Shown here piece by piece: positions 2,278 to 63,111 of a stretch of 64,000 bases of DNA (its first letter is position 1; every line of letters starts with the position of its first letter). A program made the position numbers and the translations under genes. This DNA is from Escherichia coli (GTDB lineage: Bacteria; Pseudomonadota; Gammaproteobacteria; Enterobacterales; Enterobacteriaceae). The notes under the pieces are model-generated. The model searched no databases and had not been told where the DNA came from. It saw only the letters and a list, made by a program, of their open reading frames with translations. The stretch lies in assembly GCF_024502345.1 (NCBI RefSeq), contig NZ_JALDNN010000001.1. The stretch is one strand, 5' to 3'.

Positions 2278-2537
2278 GTAAAAATGCAGCGTGATTTTAT
2301 ATGCCTTTGAATGGATTATGCGAAGCGCCTCTAAGGCAGATGAGGAGCAATAGCATGCTGAAGTAGAAGGCTAAATTGTATTGAATCGCTAGCATGTAAT
2401 TTAAGGCAGCTATTTGATTCGAGTCATAAAAGAGCATCTATTTCGGCTAATAAAACCATTGCGAGTGACCTTTTGTCGAAGCATAATTCATCTCGAGCGA
2501 AGTCTTGCTAGTCTTTCATCGGAATGATGACAGGCGC

Positions 2538-2568
2538 AAAAAAACCACCCTGGCAGGTGGTTTTTTTG
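2538..2568. terminator. Bidirectional rho-independent terminator
   Basis: A-run, inverted repeat aaccacc/ggtggtt with loop ctggcag, then T-run (aaaaaaaccaccctggcaggtggttttttt). Confidence 0.6.
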
Positions 2569-2579
2569 TTTGAAGCATA

Positions 2580-2693
2580 CTAAAGAATAATACTTACATG
2601 GATATTACTGACGTTTACTGACAAACCACTTGGACTACCATATGGATAGCCAAAGAGGGCCAGAACGAGAATGCAGTAATAGCACTTCTTCAT
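2580..2693 (-). CDS. Hypothetical small hydrophobic peptide, 37 aa (MKKCYYCILVLALFGYPYGSPSGLSVNVSNIHVSIIL)
   Basis: ATG preceded by SD-like GGAGGAGAT; ORF ends just before the bidirectional terminator at 2538-2568; start overlaps stop of upstream minus-strand ORF 2690-2935 (ATGA); below the 60-aa cutoff of the ORF track. Confidence 0.25.
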   Translation of the reverse strand: MKKCYYCILVLALFGYPYGSPSGLSVNVSNIHVSIIL

Positions 2694-3263
2694 ATCTCCT
2701 CCTGTAAGCAGAGGGCAATTTCCGCCGATATATGCGCTTCTAAGGCGGAGTTACTATTTAGCGAAGTCTTGCCCTGAAATAATGCTCTGTTTAAACGCAA
2801 AGTGATCTGGCATATCACCGAACAGAGAGCCTGAACAACACAACATATAGTATGTCGTTGTTTCTGGTTGCATTTTATGTTGTGTAATACTGGTTTTGCA
2901 TCAAGGATGTTTGAGCTTTTTTTGATATAGCTCAAAGTAAAAAGCAGGGACTACGGATGATAAGGTATTGAAAGCAATGTAAATTTTTTAAAGTTATTGG
3001 TGGCTAAAAAATGCACGGTTTCAATATGGCGGACTTAAATAAGCAATTAAAAAAGTCATAAATATCACTAAAATCATGGTGTTACGTTTTTTGTGGGAGC
3101 TGCGGTGACGCTTAAGTTGATTTGTCATTAAATAAGCCGTGCATGCAACAAGTGAATGTTTTTGCATGCGTCGGGGATGCCCGTTCCAGCTGCTTGCGGT
3201 CAGAGCTGGTGCGGATCCATAGTATCTATGCAACTGCATTAAAACCGACTCATGAAGCGGGCG

Positions 3264-3282
3264 GGCGAGGCGGGGAAAGCAC
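3264..3282. other. cos: P2 cos cohesive-end sequence (19 nt GGCGAGGCGGGGAAAGCAC)
   Basis: Exact string present between gene A and Q, where cos lies in P2; the 19-nt sequence is recalled from P2/186 literature. Confidence 0.6.
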
Positions 3283-3421
3283 TGCGCGCTGGCGGTGGTG
3301 CTGATTTTATTTTTTCAGCGTCTGAGCGCGTCGTGAAGGCGTTTACTTGGCCTGCTGGGCGTTGGTGTGTCTGCGGGGTGTTTTGTGCGGTGGTGAGCGT
3401 GTGAGGGCGTGATGGCGGGGT

Positions 3422-3449
3422 GTAAAAAAGCCGCCCGCAGGCGGCGATG
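3422..3449 (-). terminator. Rho-independent terminator downstream of Q (minus strand)
   Basis: Minus strand reads gccgcctgcgggcggc hairpin followed by a T-run immediately after the Q stop. Confidence 0.55.
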
Positions 3450-3450
3450 T

Positions 3451-4485
3451 TCAGCCGTTGTCAGTGTCCAGTGAGTAGTTTTTAAAGCGGATGACCTCCT
3501 GACCGAGCCAGCCGTTTATCTCGCGGATCCTGTCCTGTAACGGGATAAGCTCATTGCGGACAAAGACCTTTGCCACTTTCTCTATATCACCCAGCGACCC
3601 GACGTTCTCCGGCTTGCCACCCATCAACTGAAAGGGGATGCGGTGCGCGTCCAGCAGGTCTGCGGCGCTGGCTTTTTTGATATTAAAAAAATCATCCTTC
3701 GTTGCCACTTCACTGAGCGGGATAATTTTAATGCCGTCGGCTTTCCCTTGTGGGGCATAGAGAAACAGGTTTTTAAAGTTGTTGCGGCCTTTCGACTTCA
3801 CCATGTTTTCGCGGAGCATTTCGATATCGTTGCGATCCTGCACGGCATCGGTGACGTACATGATGTATCCGGCATGTGCGCCGTTTTCGTAATACTTGCG
3901 GCGGAACAGCGTGGCCGACTCATTCAGCCAGGCAGAGTTAAGGGCGCTGAGATATTCCGGCAGGCCGTACAGCTCCTGATTAATATCCGGCTCCAGCAGG
4001 TGAAACACGGAGCCGGGCGCGAAAGGTGTCGGCTCATGGAAGGACGGCACCCACCAGTAAACATCCTCTTCCACGCCACGGCGGGTATATTTTGCCGGTG
4101 AGGTTTCCAGTCTGATGACCTTACCGGTGGTGCTGTAACGCTTTTCCAGAAACGCATTACCGAACACCAGAAAATCCAGCACAAAGCGGCTGAAATCCTG
4201 CTGGGAAAGCCACGGATGCGGGATAAATGTCGAGGCCAGAATATTGCGTTTGACGTAAATCGGCGAGCTGTGATGCACGGCAGCACGCAGGCTTTTCGCC
4301 AGACCGGTAAAGCTGACCGGCGGCTCATACCATCTGCCGTTACTGATGCACTCGACGTAATCCAGAATGTCACGGCGGTCGAGTACCGGCACCGGCTCAC
4401 CAAAGGTGAATGCCTCCATTTTCGGGGCGCTGGCGGTCATTTTTTTTGCCGCAGGTTGCGGTGTTTTCCCTTTTTTCTTACTCAT
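3451..4485 (-). CDS. Q: P2 gpQ portal protein (344 aa)
   Basis: 344 aa, same length as P2 Q; position next to cos and terminase P; stop overlaps P region. Confidence 0.9.
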   Translation of the reverse strand: MSKKKGKTPQPAAKKMTASAPKMEAFTFGEPVPVLDRRDILDYVECISNGRWYEPPVSFTGLAKSLRAAVHHSSPIYVKRNILASTFIPHPWLSQQDFSRFVLDFLVFGNAFLEKRYSTTGKVIRLETSPAKYTRRGVEEDVYWWVPSFHEPTPFAPGSVFHLLEPDINQELYGLPEYLSALNSAWLNESATLFRRKYYENGAHAGYIMYVTDAVQDRNDIEMLRENMVKSKGRNNFKNLFLYAPQGKADGIKIIPLSEVATKDDFFNIKKASAADLLDAHRIPFQLMGGKPENVGSLGDIEKVAKVFVRNELIPLQDRIREINGWLGQEVIRFKNYSLDTDNG

Positions 4486-6257: not shown

Positions 6258-6430
6258 GAATACCTCGCCGTGATGAATACACGGCAAGGCTACTGAGTCG
6301 CGCCCCGCGATTCGCTAAGGTGCTGTTGTGTCAGTGATAAGCCATCCGGGACTGATGGCGGAGGATGTGCATCGTCGGGAAACTGATGCCGACATGTGAC
6401 TCCTCTAATCACTATTCAGGACTCCTGACA

Positions 6431-59357: not shown

Positions 59358-60497
59358 ATGATGAAATCCAAAATGAAATTGATGCCATTATTGGTGTCAG
59401 TAACCTTGATAAGCGGTTGCACAGTACTTCCGGGCAGCAATATGTCGACGATGGGCAAAGACGTCATCAAACAGCAGGACGCTGATTTCGATCTCGACAA
59501 AATGGTGAATGTTTATCCGCTGACCCCGCGCCTGATTGACCAATTACGCCCACGCCCGAATGTAGCGCGCCCCAATATGACGCTGGAAAGTGAGATCGCG
59601 AATTACCAGTATCGCGTCGGGCCGGGGGACGTTCTTAATGTCACCGTCTGGGATCACCCGGAACTCACCACGCCAGCCGGTCAGTACCGCAGCTCCAGCG
59701 ACACCGGCAACTGGGTACAGCCTGACGGCACTATGTTTTACCCGTATATCGGCAAGGTCCACGTAGTCGGGAAAACGCTCGCTGAAATCCGCAGTGATAT
59801 TACCGGGCGCTTAGCGACGTACATCGCTGACCCGCAGGTGGACGTTAATATCGCCGCCTTCCGCTCACAAAAGGCCTATATCTCCGGTCAGGTGAATAAA
59901 TCCGGTCAACAGGCGATCACCAACGTGCCACTGACTATTCTCGACGCCATCAACGCCGCAGGTGGCCTGACCGACACCGCTGACTGGCGCAACGTGGTGT
60001 TAACACACAATGGTCGTGAAGAACGCATTTCTTTGCAGGCGCTGATGCAAAACGGCGACCTCAATCAGAACCGACTGCTTTATCCCGGCGATATTCTCTA
60101 CGTGCCGCGTAATGATGATCTGAAAGTGTTTGTGATGGGTGAAGTGAAGAAACAGAGCACCCTGAAAATGGACTTTAGCGGCATGACCCTGACTGAAGCC
60201 CTGGGCAATGCTGAAGGCATCGACATGACCACCTCCAACGCCAGCGGCATCTTTGTCATTCGTCCGCTGAAAGGCGAGGGCGGGCGTAACGGCAAGATTG
60301 CCAATATCTACCAGCTGGATATGTCCGATGCGACGTCGCTGGTGATGGCGACAGAATTCCGCCTGCAACCTTATGACGTGGTGTATGTCACCACCGCCCC
60401 GGTTTCCCGCTGGAACCGTCTGATCAATCAGTTGCTGCCAACTATTAGCGGTGTCCGTTACATGACGGATACAGCCAGCGACATTCATAACTGGTAA
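59358..60497 (+). CDS. wza: Colanic acid export outer membrane lipoprotein Wza (379 aa)
   Basis: Signal peptide with lipobox LISGC; 379 aa. Confidence 0.95.
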
Positions 60498-60502
60498 TCG
60501 TC

Positions 60503-60946
60503 ATGTTTAACAACATCTTAGTTGTCTGTGTCGGCAATATTTGCCGTTCCCCGACGGCGGAACGCTTACTGCAACGTTATCACCCGGAGCTGAAAGTGGA
60601 GTCCGCTGGACTCGGCGCGCTGGTCGGTAAGGGCGCTGATCCTACCGCTATCAGCGTCGCCGCAGAACATCAACTGTCTCTGGAAGGTCACTGTGCACGG
60701 CAAATCAGCCGCCGCCTGTGTCGCAACTATGACCTGATTTTGACCATGGAAAAGCGCCATATCGAACGCTTATGCGAGATGGCACCTGAGATGCGCGGCA
60801 AAGTGATGCTGTTTGGTCACTGGGATAACGAATGTGAAATCCCCGATCCGTATCGCAAAAGCCGGGAAACGTTTGCAGCGGTGTACACATTACTTGAACG
60901 GTCTGCCCGCCAGTGGGCGCAGGCATTGAACGCAGAGCAGGTATAA
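60503..60946 (+). CDS. wzb: Low molecular weight protein-tyrosine phosphatase Wzb (147 aa)
   Basis: CVGNICRSP P-loop motif; 147 aa. Confidence 0.95.
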   Translation: MFNNILVVCVGNICRSPTAERLLQRYHPELKVESAGLGALVGKGADPTAISVAAEHQLSLEGHCARQISRRLCRNYDLILTMEKRHIERLCEMAPEMRGKVMLFGHWDNECEIPDPYRKSRETFAAVYTLLERSARQWAQALNAEQV

Positions 60947-60948
60947 GA

Positions 60949-63111
60949 ATGACAGAAAAAGTAAAACAACATGCCGCTCCGGTAACGGGCAGTGATGAAA
61001 TCGATATTGGTCGCCTGGTCGGCACCGTCATTGAAGCGCGCTGGTGGGTGATTGGCATCACCGCTGTATTTGCCCTCTGTGCTGTGGTTTACACTTTCTT
61101 CGCCACGCCGATTTATAGTGCCGACGCACTGGTACAAATCGAACAAAACAGCGGCAATTCGTTAGTGCAGGACATTGGCTCGGCATTAGCCAACAAACCG
61201 CCTGCATCGGACGCCGAGATCCAGTTGATTCGTTCGCGTCTGGTGCTTGGTAAAACGGTGGACGATCTAGACCTCGATATTGCGGTGAGCAAAAACACGT
61301 TCCCGATTTTCGGTGCGGGTTGGGATCGCCTGATGGGACGTCAGAACGAGACGGTGAAAGTGACCACCTTTAACCGCCCGAAAGAGATGGCGGACCAGGT
61401 GTTTACGCTTAATGTGCTGGATGACAAAAACTACACTCTGAGCAGTGATGGCGGCTTTAGCGCCCGTGGGCAAGCGGGCCAGATGCTGAAAAAAGAAGGC
61501 GTCACGCTGATGGTTGAAGCCATTCACGCCCGCCCGGGCAGTGAGTTTACCGTCACCAAATACTCCACGTTGGGGATGATCAACCAACTGCAAAACAGCC
61601 TGACGGTAACGGAGAACGGCAAAGACGCAGGCGTACTGAGCCTGACTTATACCGGTGAAGATCGCGAACAGATCCGCGACATTCTTAACAGCATCGCCCG
61701 TAACTATCAGGAACAAAATATTGAGCGCAAATCGGCGGAAGCGTCGAAAAGCCTCGCTTTCCTCGCGCAACAGTTACCGGAAGTACGTAGCCGCCTCGAT
61801 GTTGCCGAAAACAAACTGAATGCCTTCCGTCAGGATAAAGATTCTGTTGATCTGCCGCTGGAAGCGAAAGCGGTGCTCGATTCGATGGTGAACATCGACG
61901 CGCAGTTGAACGAACTGACCTTTAAAGAGGCGGAAATCTCCAAGCTGTACACCAAAGTTCACCCCGCGTACCGCACGCTGCTGGAGAAACGTCAGGCGCT
62001 GGAAGACGAAAAAGCCAAACTTAATGGTCGCGTAACGGCGATGCCGAAAACCCAGCAGGAAATTGTCCGTCTGACCCGCGATGTCGAGTCTGGTCAGCAG
62101 GTCTATATGCAACTGCTGAATAAAGAGCAGGAGCTGAAAATCACCGAAGCCAGCACCGTCGGCGATGTGCGCATTGTTGACCCGGCAATCACCCAGCCAG
62201 GTGTACTGAAACCGAAGAAAGGGCTGATTATCCTTGGGGCGATTATTCTTGGCCTGATGCTCTCTATCGTGGGTGTGCTGCTGCGCTCGTTGTTTAATCG
62301 CGGCATCGAAAGCCCGCAGGTGCTGGAAGAACACGGTATCAGCGTCTATGCCAGCATCCCGTTGTCGGAATGGCAGAAAGCGCGCGATAGCGTCAAAACC
62401 ATCAAAGGGATTAAACGCTATAAACAGAGCCAGCTACTGGCGGTGGGGAATCCAACCGATCTGGCGATTGAAGCCATCCGTAGTCTGCGTACCAGTTTGC
62501 ACTTCGCGATGATGCAGGCGCAGAACAATGTGTTGATGATGACCGGGGTTAGCCCGTCAATCGGTAAAACCTTTGTCTGCGCCAACCTGGCGGCGGTGAT
62601 CAGCCAGACCAATAAACGCGTGTTGTTGATCGACTGCGATATGCGCAAAGGCTACACCCACGAGCTGTTGGGCACTAATAACGTTAATGGCCTGTCGGAA
62701 ATTCTGATTGGTCAGGGCGATATTACTACCGCTGCTAAACCGACCTCTATTGCCAAATTTGACCTGATCCCGCGCGGTCAGGTGCCGCCAAATCCTTCTG
62801 AACTGTTGATGAGCGAACGCTTTGCCGAACTGGTGAACTGGGCGAGTAAAAACTATGACCTGGTGTTGATTGATACGCCGCCGATTCTGGCAGTGACCGA
62901 TGCGGCAATTGTTGGTCGTCATGTTGGAACCACGTTAATGGTGGCGCGTTATGCGGTCAACACATTGAAAGAAGTGGAAACCAGTCTGAGCCGCTTTGAG
63001 CAAAACGGTATTCCGGTGAAAGGGGTGATTCTGAACTCCATCTTCCGCCGCGCCAGCGCGTATCAGGATTATGGCTATTACGAATACGAATATAAGTCGG
63101 ATGCGAAATAA
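60949..63111 (+). CDS. wzc: Tyrosine autokinase / polysaccharide co-polymerase Wzc (720 aa)
   Basis: Start at MTEKVKQHAAP within ORF 60913-63111; Walker A GVSPSIGKT; Tyr-rich C-terminal tail YQDYGYYEYEYKSD. Confidence 0.95.
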   Translation: MTEKVKQHAAPVTGSDEIDIGRLVGTVIEARWWVIGITAVFALCAVVYTFFATPIYSADALVQIEQNSGNSLVQDIGSALANKPPASDAEIQLIRSRLVLGKTVDDLDLDIAVSKNTFPIFGAGWDRLMGRQNETVKVTTFNRPKEMADQVFTLNVLDDKNYTLSSDGGFSARGQAGQMLKKEGVTLMVEAIHARPGSEFTVTKYSTLGMINQLQNSLTVTENGKDAGVLSLTYTGEDREQIRDILNSIARNYQEQNIERKSAEASKSLAFLAQQLPEVRSRLDVAENKLNAFRQDKDSVDLPLEAKAVLDSMVNIDAQLNELTFKEAEISKLYTKVHPAYRTLLEKRQALEDEKAKLNGRVTAMPKTQQEIVRLTRDVESGQQVYMQLLNKEQELKITEASTVGDVRIVDPAITQPGVLKPKKGLIILGAIILGLMLSIVGVLLRSLFNRGIESPQVLEEHGISVYASIPLSEWQKARDSVKTIKGIKRYKQSQLLAVGNPTDLAIEAIRSLRTSLHFAMMQAQNNVLMMTGVSPSIGKTFVCANLAAVISQTNKRVLLIDCDMRKGYTHELLGTNNVNGLSEILIGQGDITTAAKPTSIAKFDLIPRGQVPPNPSELLMSERFAELVNWASKNYDLVLIDTPPILAVTDAAIVGRHVGTTLMVARYAVNTLKEVETSLSRFEQNGIPVKGVILNSIFRRASAYQDYGYYEYEYKSDAK

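Follow-up and report, generated by a model that had tools for sequence, protein, structure and literature searches.

A conserved 37-codon gene of P2-like prophages and Klebsiella plasmids as the coding half of a candidate type I toxin-antitoxin-like cassette

The stretch of Escherichia coli DNA analyzed here (64,000 nucleotides of contig NZ_JALDNN010000001.1, assembly GCF_024502345.1; hereafter, the window) contains a short open reading frame (ORF) of 37 codons on the minus strand (2693..2580, stop codon TAG, product MKKCYYCILVLALFGYPYGSPSGLSVNVSNIHVSIIL). The ORF lies within the cos-proximal gpA-gpQ interval of a P2-type prophage, which spans 1.17 kb and has no annotated gene in this window. 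Comparison with related sequences shows that the ORF is under purifying selection, and it is almost certainly a real coding gene. It belongs to a conserved mobile module composed of a small RNA (sRNA) gene, a bidirectional terminator, the small ORF, a structured 5' untranslated region (5'UTR) and an mRNA promoter (Table 1). On balance we favor, by a limited lean, the reading that the ORF is the coding half of a self-contained cassette of about 545 bp that resembles the toxin-antitoxin (TA) systems of type I.

For the analysis of the ORF, 19 distinct nucleotide versions from at least six clades were compared. The length is 37 codons in all of the clades, with 38 codons in the Kluyvera copy (L069) due to a single in-frame codon insertion. 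Conservation of the frame in other genomes, which an earlier note on this DNA had named as a check, was thus found across at least six clades. The variable sites are distributed over codon positions 1, 2 and 3 as 21, 15 and 34, respectively, and the pairwise Nei-Gojobori ratios of nonsynonymous to synonymous changes (dN/dS) range from 0.08 to 0.38. In the most diverged pairs, the proportion of synonymous differences (pS) is saturated at 0.8-0.9, while that of nonsynonymous differences (pN) is 0.28 or less. The coding sequence has a single indel, of 3 nt, as compared to 15 or more indel events in the 176-nt 5'UTR, most of them 1-2 nt long, and a 5-nt indel is located directly after the ORF stop. 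In the peptide, M1, C7, I8, L11, L13, G15, Y16, P17, S22, S25 and I35 are invariant (11 positions). The near-ideal Shine-Dalgarno (SD) sequence described in the earlier note is indeed present, as the minus strand reads CAGGAGGAGAT followed by ATG (plus-strand coordinates 2704-2694) and contains AGGAGG. The GGAGG core is found in all of the clades, except for GGTGG in L051 and GGAGA in L028. However, the bare pattern, in which GGAGG is followed after 4-8 nt by the ATG of an ORF with 30 codons or more, is found three times in the window versus 2.9 +/- 1.7 times in shuffled sequences. This is the chance level, and therefore the case for the gene is carried by the comparative evidence, by which the unannotated small-protein gene is genuine and conserved. 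Another GGAGG-ATG ORF of 42 codons, at 60226 on the minus strand and antisense inside wza, looks like a chance ORF.

The ATG of the ORF overlaps the TGA of an upstream 81-codon ORF with a TTG start (2935..2690) as ATGA, as had been reported. This upstream ORF did not hold up as a gene, because the 1-2-nt indels of the 5'UTR break its frame in other clades, and we rejected it. The RefSeq annotation by the Prokaryotic Genome Annotation Pipeline (PGAP) has nothing under the module in any listed E. coli record (151 genomes). One Salmonella phage record labels the 37-codon ORF 'hypothetical protein', and scattered GenBank entries also call it, such as ECW_m2278 of E. coli W.

The earlier note overlooked a convergent sRNA, predicted on the plus strand, and a 13-nt repeat that ties this sRNA to the 5'UTR of the ORF. 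In the sRNA promoter, the -35 element TTGCG(A/G), the 17-nt spacing and the -10 element GCATAAT are invariant in all of the clades, while the spacer sequence diverges freely. Invariant hexamers around a free spacer are the classic signature of a promoter. A terminator-like hairpin at 2235-2258 on the plus strand, inside the last gpA codons, implies that gpA transcription probably stops upstream of the module, which supports a separate promoter for the sRNA. About 7 nt past the -10 element starts GAGCGAAGUCUUG, which is invariant, and GAGCGAAGTCTTG is unchanged across all of the sRNA variants. The fold, consisting of three elements, is predicted alike in six clades (z = -2.2 to -3.9). By RNAalifold and pair counts, 94.5% of the alignment cells are paired, as compared to 52-67% in slid controls. 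In stem-loop 2, four of the six pairs have compensatory double changes, and 15 cells are changed on both sides versus 5.9 in shuffled alignments, a number reached by none of the 500 shuffles. The structure of the predicted sRNA is thus conserved with covariation, as is that of the predicted mRNA described below.

The two predicted RNAs end at a common terminator, AAAAAAACCACC-CTGGCA-GGTGGTTTTTTT, which folds into a 12-bp hairpin with a U-run on both strands and is 100% conserved in 38 of the 38 unique module copies. It escaped a simple terminator scanner, since its T-run forms part of the stem. Consistent with the reported proximity of the ORF to a bidirectional terminator, 12 nt separate the stop codon from the A/U-extended stem of the 2538-2567 hairpin. 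Over the terminator the two RNAs are fully antisense to each other, with a 3' overlap of 30 nt.

This hairpin also bears on two other explanations of the ORF. A search of Rfam at a permissive E-value returned only sub-threshold matches to RNAI, Phe_leader and STnc130, which are due to the terminator hairpin. The hairpin (AAAAACCACCCTGGCAGGTGGTTTTT) is identical over ~27 nt to one in many small ColE1-like plasmid contigs (L050, L052-L068 and L070), some of which look like contaminants in assemblies of unrelated phyla, and this sharing explains the weak RNAI matches. The ColE1 RNAI (RF00106) is likewise a short antisense RNA with stem-loops, and its terminator hairpin is nearly identical to AAACCACC...GGTGGTTTTTTTGTTTG, whose 3' flank GGTGGTTTTTTTGTTTG presumably matches the RNAI 3' end. 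Unlike RNAI, the module lacks a replication origin context and shows no likeness outside the hairpin, and RNAI membership was rejected at 26.2 and 22.3 bits. It is very unlikely that the ORF is untranslated and that the locus acts at the RNA level alone, whether as two convergent structured non-coding RNAs or as what is left of an RNAI-like control element of the ColE1 type. Although the RNAI matches, the shared hairpin and the fact that PGAP never called the ORF would suit this explanation, the scores are far under the gathering score of 47 and the likeness is limited to the terminator. In addition, the codon-position bias, the dN/dS values, the constant length, the in-frame-only indel and the retained SD and ATG are hard to explain for an untranslated sequence. 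Even less credible is a leader peptide that governs read-through of the adjacent terminator by attenuation, as might be proposed for a short ORF that stops 12 nt before a strong terminator and has weak Rfam matches to Phe_leader (RF01859, 26 and 23 bits). These scores are under the gathering score of 55, the peptide contains no regulatory amino-acid runs, and purifying selection extends along its whole length. Furthermore, there is no downstream minus-strand gene to regulate, as the module is followed by the convergent gpA 3' end in P2 and by unrelated sequence in the plasmids. On this context we rejected the attenuator reading, which is largely refuted.

The link between the two RNAs is the exact 13-mer AGCGAAGTCTTGC, which occurs twice in the 64-kb window (2496-2508 and 2760-2772) with 0.09 occurrences expected. 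Since the transcripts are convergent, this direct DNA repeat renders the sRNA 5' end complementary to the mRNA 5'UTR. The target site gave the best predicted duplex in all ten variants tested, with -28 to -37 kcal/mol as compared to shuffled means of -17 to -23 kcal/mol, and the perfect or wobble-containing duplex lengthens to 15-18 nt in other clades. In the alignment of sRNA-target pairs, the 14 central positions are paired in 11 of 11 variants, and 94.7% of the seed-target cells are paired versus 24-43% in slid registers. The nine variant cells that are changed on one side only are all G.U or U.G, and never A.C. One position runs the full path from C:G through U.G to U:A, with complete compensation in L092. 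This one-directional wobble pattern provides moderate rather than decisive support for pairing: by our rough estimate, ~6-8 events underlie it, each of a tolerated kind, and p is around 0.01. The complementarity is thus conserved, and the sRNA probably exists and pairs with the 5'UTR. The H2 loop of the 5'UTR (2801-2806, minus strand, UGCCAG; UGCCA in all clades) is in addition complementary to the loop of the sRNA terminator (2550-2555, plus strand, CUGGCA), and a second, kissing contact between the two RNAs is possible from these sequences.

The mRNA of the ORF would start near position 2865. No LexA box was found upstream of the mRNA on inspection by eye. The predicted fold of the 5'UTR is composed of H2, a three-way junction closed by GGGC:GCCC around the target site, and H3, preceded by H1, which is probably dispensable since it is reduced or lost in L051 and L092. 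In the whole 5'UTR, 98.6% of the cells are paired versus 42-47% in slid registers, and seven pairs have double compensatory changes, a number that none of the 500 shuffles reached. Three outer-stem pairs of H2 have compensatory double changes in L051 and L092. The H3 stem varies by clade and yet pairs, as TCCGCC/GGCGGA, TCCACC/GGTGGA or CCTTCAG/CTGAAGG. Several of the invariant pairs are G.U pairs, specific to one strand, and thus point to the minus strand as the relevant one. In most of the predicted folds, the probability that the SD is unpaired is 0.03-0.29, and in one clade it is 0.48 in the full-length fold, suggesting that the SD may be sequestered in the mRNA structure. The internal loop of H2 (UUUGCGUUUAAA) is also nearly invariant.

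Table 1. Positions of the module and its predicted elements in the window
Feature	Position	Strand	Basis or remark
Whole conserved mobile module, ~545 bp	2414..2957	.	homology end points
Predicted sigma-70 sRNA promoter: TTGCGA, 17-nt spacer, (G)CATAAT	2459..2487	+	promoter scan; conservation
Predicted antisense sRNA of ~75 nt, candidate antitoxin, composed of 5' seed, stem-loop 2 and terminator	2493..2570	+	fold in 6 clades
sRNA seed GAGCGAAGTCTTGC at predicted 5' end	2495..2508	+	exact repeat; invariance
sRNA stem-loop 2	2511..2535	+	sequence varies by clade, hairpin always kept
Bidirectional intrinsic terminator, common to sRNA (+) and ORF mRNA (-)	2538..2567	.	invariance; folds
Small-protein gene (candidate toxin)	2580..2693	-	constant length, codon-position bias, dN/dS, sole coding-sequence indel 3 nt
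Shine-Dalgarno region CAGGAGGAGAT	2694..2704	-	GGAGG kept in nearly all clades
Hairpin H3, conserved loop (GAAGCGCAUAUA)	2719..2750	-	98.8% of cells paired, 2 pairs with double changes
sRNA target site, mRNA reads CAGGGCAAGACUUCGCUA	2759..2776	-	~65-80 nt upstream of SD; duplex prediction
Hairpin H2, nearly invariant, loop UGCCA(G)	2785..2827	-	100% of cells paired
5'-proximal hairpin H1	2833..2864	-	predicted in P2 and Klebsiella clades; shortened or absent in L051, L092
Putative mRNA promoter: TTGATGCAAA block, 17-18 nt, TAAAAT/TAGAAT	2872..2904	-	blocks conserved in all clades

The module moves between different mobile elements. The homology to the Klebsiella plasmid, Kluyvera and metagenome copies starts and stops at the 2414-2957 borders, with ~73% identity. 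Of 5426 complete E. coli genomes, 151 carry the module, with 88-100% identity among the P2-like prophages. With the same end points and ~73% identity, it is also found in Klebsiella, on ~400 large IncF plasmids that are conjugative for the most part; virulence plasmids of the pLVPK-like type and a KPC hybrid are among them. Further clades were found by searches anchored on the invariant terminator: L051 is a viral metagenome contig, L092 and L079 are metagenome contigs, and L069 is Kluyvera georgiana ATCC 51603, the only module carrier in the terminator-anchored contig scan, which otherwise yielded mostly unrelated ColE1-like small plasmids. The metagenome contigs are rich in insertion sequences (IS). 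The L079 contig has two diverged copies of the whole module on the same strand, 2.9 kb apart (3417-3441 and 6337-6361). The Kluyvera copy (L069 1744-5549) adjoins an ORF for a Zot-like P-loop protein and other inovirus-like ORFs, as assigned by N-terminal inspection only, and this region may represent a third, inovirus-like type of mobile element bearing the module. In the hybrid plasmid pJ53-KPC_Vir (L008 5400-5537), a dinQ type I toxin gene annotated by PGAP is located ~0.9 kb from the module, and ThiF/MPN genes, a 3'-5' exonuclease gene and IS elements are nearby, in an accessory island that gathers small toxin loci.

The gpA-gpQ interval of P2-like phages is a hotspot of anti-phage cargo (Rousset et al., PMC9122126). 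The module forms the left edge of this hotspot and is followed by variable plus-strand cargo, namely retron Ec48, SIR2, an AAA ATPase or ImmA/IrrE. In the present window no cargo follows, and cos/gpQ comes next. Given that it occurs with varied cargo or with none, the module is an independent passenger. The ~330 bp to its right (2958-3290) have a high AT content and contain a plus-strand sequence at 3047-3074 that resembles a promoter (TTAAAA-16-TAAAAT), and they are shared at 97-99% with prophages (L006 and L007) in which the retron Ec48 or SIR2 locus follows. This segment may be a cargo promoter or a recombination border.

The peptide has a GRAVY (grand average of hydropathy) value of 0.73-0.91 and a basic N-terminus, and its residues 4-14 form a hydrophobic run. 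Its C-terminal 14 residues follow a strict hphph-pp-hphph alternation in all of the clades, a pattern that suggests an amphipathic beta structure. Searches of Pfam, NCBIfam (with five family-member peptides) and PADLOC gave no match to the peptide at E<=10, including to the Hok/Gef, Ldr, Ibs, TisB, ShoB, DinQ and ZorO families. The matches in PHROGs were all to families of unknown function and fell short of significance (E 0.23-0.41). No wider family was revealed by a profile search among 1.84 billion representative proteins, as only the module relatives had strong E-values and the rest was junk. As far as these searches reach, the family has few members, all of them in Enterobacteriaceae-type sequences. 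A literature search on the peptide and seed sequences and on type I TA systems of P2 or Klebsiella found no description of the locus, and the Klebsiella transcriptome and RIL-seq literature, including one supplement, contained no usable sequence match to it.

The features by which type I TA loci are recognized are found here to different degrees. A gene for a small (<60 aa) hydrophobic protein is present, an adjacent gene for an antisense or partly complementary sRNA is found in silico, and a structured mRNA with a sequestered ribosome-binding site is predicted. The match to type I TA systems is based on the basic and hydrophobic protein, the long structured leader, the dedicated seed sRNA, the tandem duplication and the mobile carriage. 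In the proposed mechanism, a minus-strand mRNA of ~330 nt (~2865 to ~2538) would carry a long structured 5'UTR, a partly sequestered SD and the 37-codon ORF. Its product, with a basic N-terminus, a signal-anchor-like segment of 11-14 residues and an alternating C-terminus of 14 residues, would insert into the inner membrane and be harmful when over-produced. The convergent plus-strand sRNA of ~75 nt (~2493-2570) would be transcribed from its own invariant promoter and end at the common bidirectional terminator. Over 13-18 nt, its 5' end would pair with the 5'UTR at a site located ~65-80 nt upstream of the SD, and its terminator hairpin would be antisense to the mRNA terminator. This pairing would keep the mRNA untranslated and/or trigger its decay. 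When the unstable sRNA is lost, upon loss of the element or under stress, synthesis of the peptide would be released.

Among known systems, timP/timR (the RyfA locus of Salmonella and E. coli) is the closest functional analogue. TimP is a signal-sequence toxin of 38-41 aa, repressed by the sRNA TimR, the 5' end of which pairs with 18 nt of the timP 5'UTR (PMC7667032). The module similarly encodes a protein of about this size (~38-41 aa in TimP) with a basic N-terminus, a signal-like hydrophobic segment and a similar CxCI(V/L)(L/V) start, and has next to it a predicted sRNA that would pair by its 5' end (over ~18 nt in timP) with the mRNA 5'UTR, likewise far upstream of the SD, with RNA structure expected to control translation. 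However, timR is divergent and located upstream of timP, whereas the module sRNA is convergent and shares its terminator with the mRNA, and timPR belongs to the chromosomal core, whereas the module resides on prophages and plasmids. Homology to TimP, suggested by the CxCI(V/L) N-terminus, was rejected: the NF040796 toxic_TimP model scored 86.8 bits for TimP and hit none of the five module peptides. Likewise, hhalign of TimP against the module peptide family gave a probability of 12% over 11 residues, and Rfam ryfA (RF00126) had no match at E<=10.

In zorO/orzO, tisB/istR-1, shoB/ohsC and dinQ/agrB, a separate sRNA gene has short complementarity to the 5'UTR (~18-21 nt) in place of full antisense overlap (PMC7667032, PMC3919570). 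The module shares with this group the small hydrophobic protein, the long structured 5'UTR, the occluded SD and the sRNA with short complementarity, and its tandem copies in L079 recall the zorO/zorP duplication. In contrast, the sRNAs of the group are divergent from upstream, whereas that of the module is convergent with a 30-nt 3' overlap, and the module peptide is unrelated in sequence to the toxins of the group. In bsrG/SR4 and txpA/RatA of the Bacillus subtilis prophages, the toxin mRNA and the antitoxin RNA are convergent and their 3' ends overlap by ~120 nt, and SR4 promotes decay and alters the structure around the SD. These systems resemble the module in convergence, 3' overlap and prophage-like carriage. 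On the other hand, they are Gram-positive and their sequences are unrelated, and in the module the cis overlap is limited to the terminator, while the main complementarity is a separate trans-type seed.

Several observations weigh against the type I TA-like reading. The earlier note had likened the peptide to a membrane-inserting small toxin or a signal sequence. The basic N-terminus and the hydrophobic segment agree with this, but the run of 11-14 residues is short for a transmembrane toxin, unlike the classic toxin helix, and is nearer to a signal or signal-anchor segment. An AlphaFold prediction from an alignment of ten sequences had low confidence (pLDDT 55.7) and was uninformative on the fold. 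In the mRNA promoter, the -10 element is good, but the -35 element is weak (3/6 match) and the promoter scan did not call the site. The variant in the window itself, with perfect complementarity of only 13 nt, is the weakest among the clades, at -27.7 kcal/mol versus -30.5 kcal/mol for the best shuffle. Formal covariation between seed and target is weak, with only one double change, and given so little variation the shuffle control (349/500) does not separate the duplex from background. It is therefore conceivable that the 13-nt repeat is conserved as direct DNA repeats to which a protein binds. Among the database copies of the peptide, some (P0038, P0040 and P0045) are read-through, frameshifted or truncated after ~16-24 residues, indicating that the gene is dispensable and decays in some hosts. 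That both RNAs are transcribed, that the sRNA represses, and that the peptide is targeted to the membrane and is toxic are steps that we infer, toxicity by analogy only.

Among the small membrane proteins of enterobacteria, many act as regulators and not as toxins. The peptide could be a non-toxic accessory protein of the mobile element, either in the membrane or exposed to the periplasm and tuned by the sRNA, with no addiction or killing, acting for example in superinfection exclusion, in modulation of a host membrane protein or as a helper of the neighboring defence cargo. This explanation is possible but clearly less likely than the cassette. The same coding and sRNA evidence applies to it, and the module is located at the left edge of the P2 anti-phage hotspot beside variable cargo (PMC9122126). 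In addition, TimP at endogenous levels allows growth (PMC7667032). However, the module is also found without cargo and in unrelated plasmid and inovirus settings, and thus does not depend on a particular neighbor. Moreover, silencing as elaborate as this, by a long structured UTR together with SD occlusion and an sRNA of its own, is typically seen where a product must be kept off.

Within the type I TA-like reading, a more specific mechanism can be formulated, which we consider rather doubtful. The peptide might act in a new manner, in which a Sec-type signal-anchor exports a 15-residue amphipathic, beta-hairpin-like tail to the periplasm, where it would oligomerize into a beta-type pore or interfere with an envelope machine, in place of an alpha-helical inner-membrane pore as in Hok and TisB. 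The cassette would then be an abortive-infection or element-competition device in the P2 hotspot and on the Klebsiella virulence and resistance plasmids, and the sRNA would make dual contact through its 5' seed and a kiss of the terminator loop with the H2 loop.

As for the surroundings of the module, positions 1-2277 of the window encode the P2-type replication endonuclease gpA, and 3451-4485 on the minus strand encode the portal protein gpQ, followed by the terminase. The wza-wzb-wzc cluster is at 59358-63111, and thus the colanic-acid/capsule export genes are ~55 kb away from the prophage. In at least a dozen complete chromosome records of E. coli, the region is found at 2480/2481-2780, and these records hence begin at the gpA ATG, like this window. 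These assemblies seem to have been rotated to a prophage 'replication' gene instead of dnaA, which looks like a pipeline artefact.

As judged from sequence comparison, the module represents a candidate new family of a known kind, type I TA-like, that is widespread on clinically relevant mobile elements. If this is true, a new family, unrelated in sequence, joins the enterobacterial type I toxin-antitoxin repertoire. Current annotation is blind to the module, as ~1.2 kb appear 'empty' after PGAP annotation, both in 151 complete E. coli genomes and on ~400 plasmids. The module could aid the maintenance of prophages and plasmids, or phage exclusion. Its unusual layout, with a convergent sRNA, a common bidirectional terminator and a separate seed in the 5'UTR, makes it a compact system in which to test how an sRNA may control the translation of a toxin, and further 'empty' defence hotspots may hide genes of fewer than 50 codons and RNA genes.

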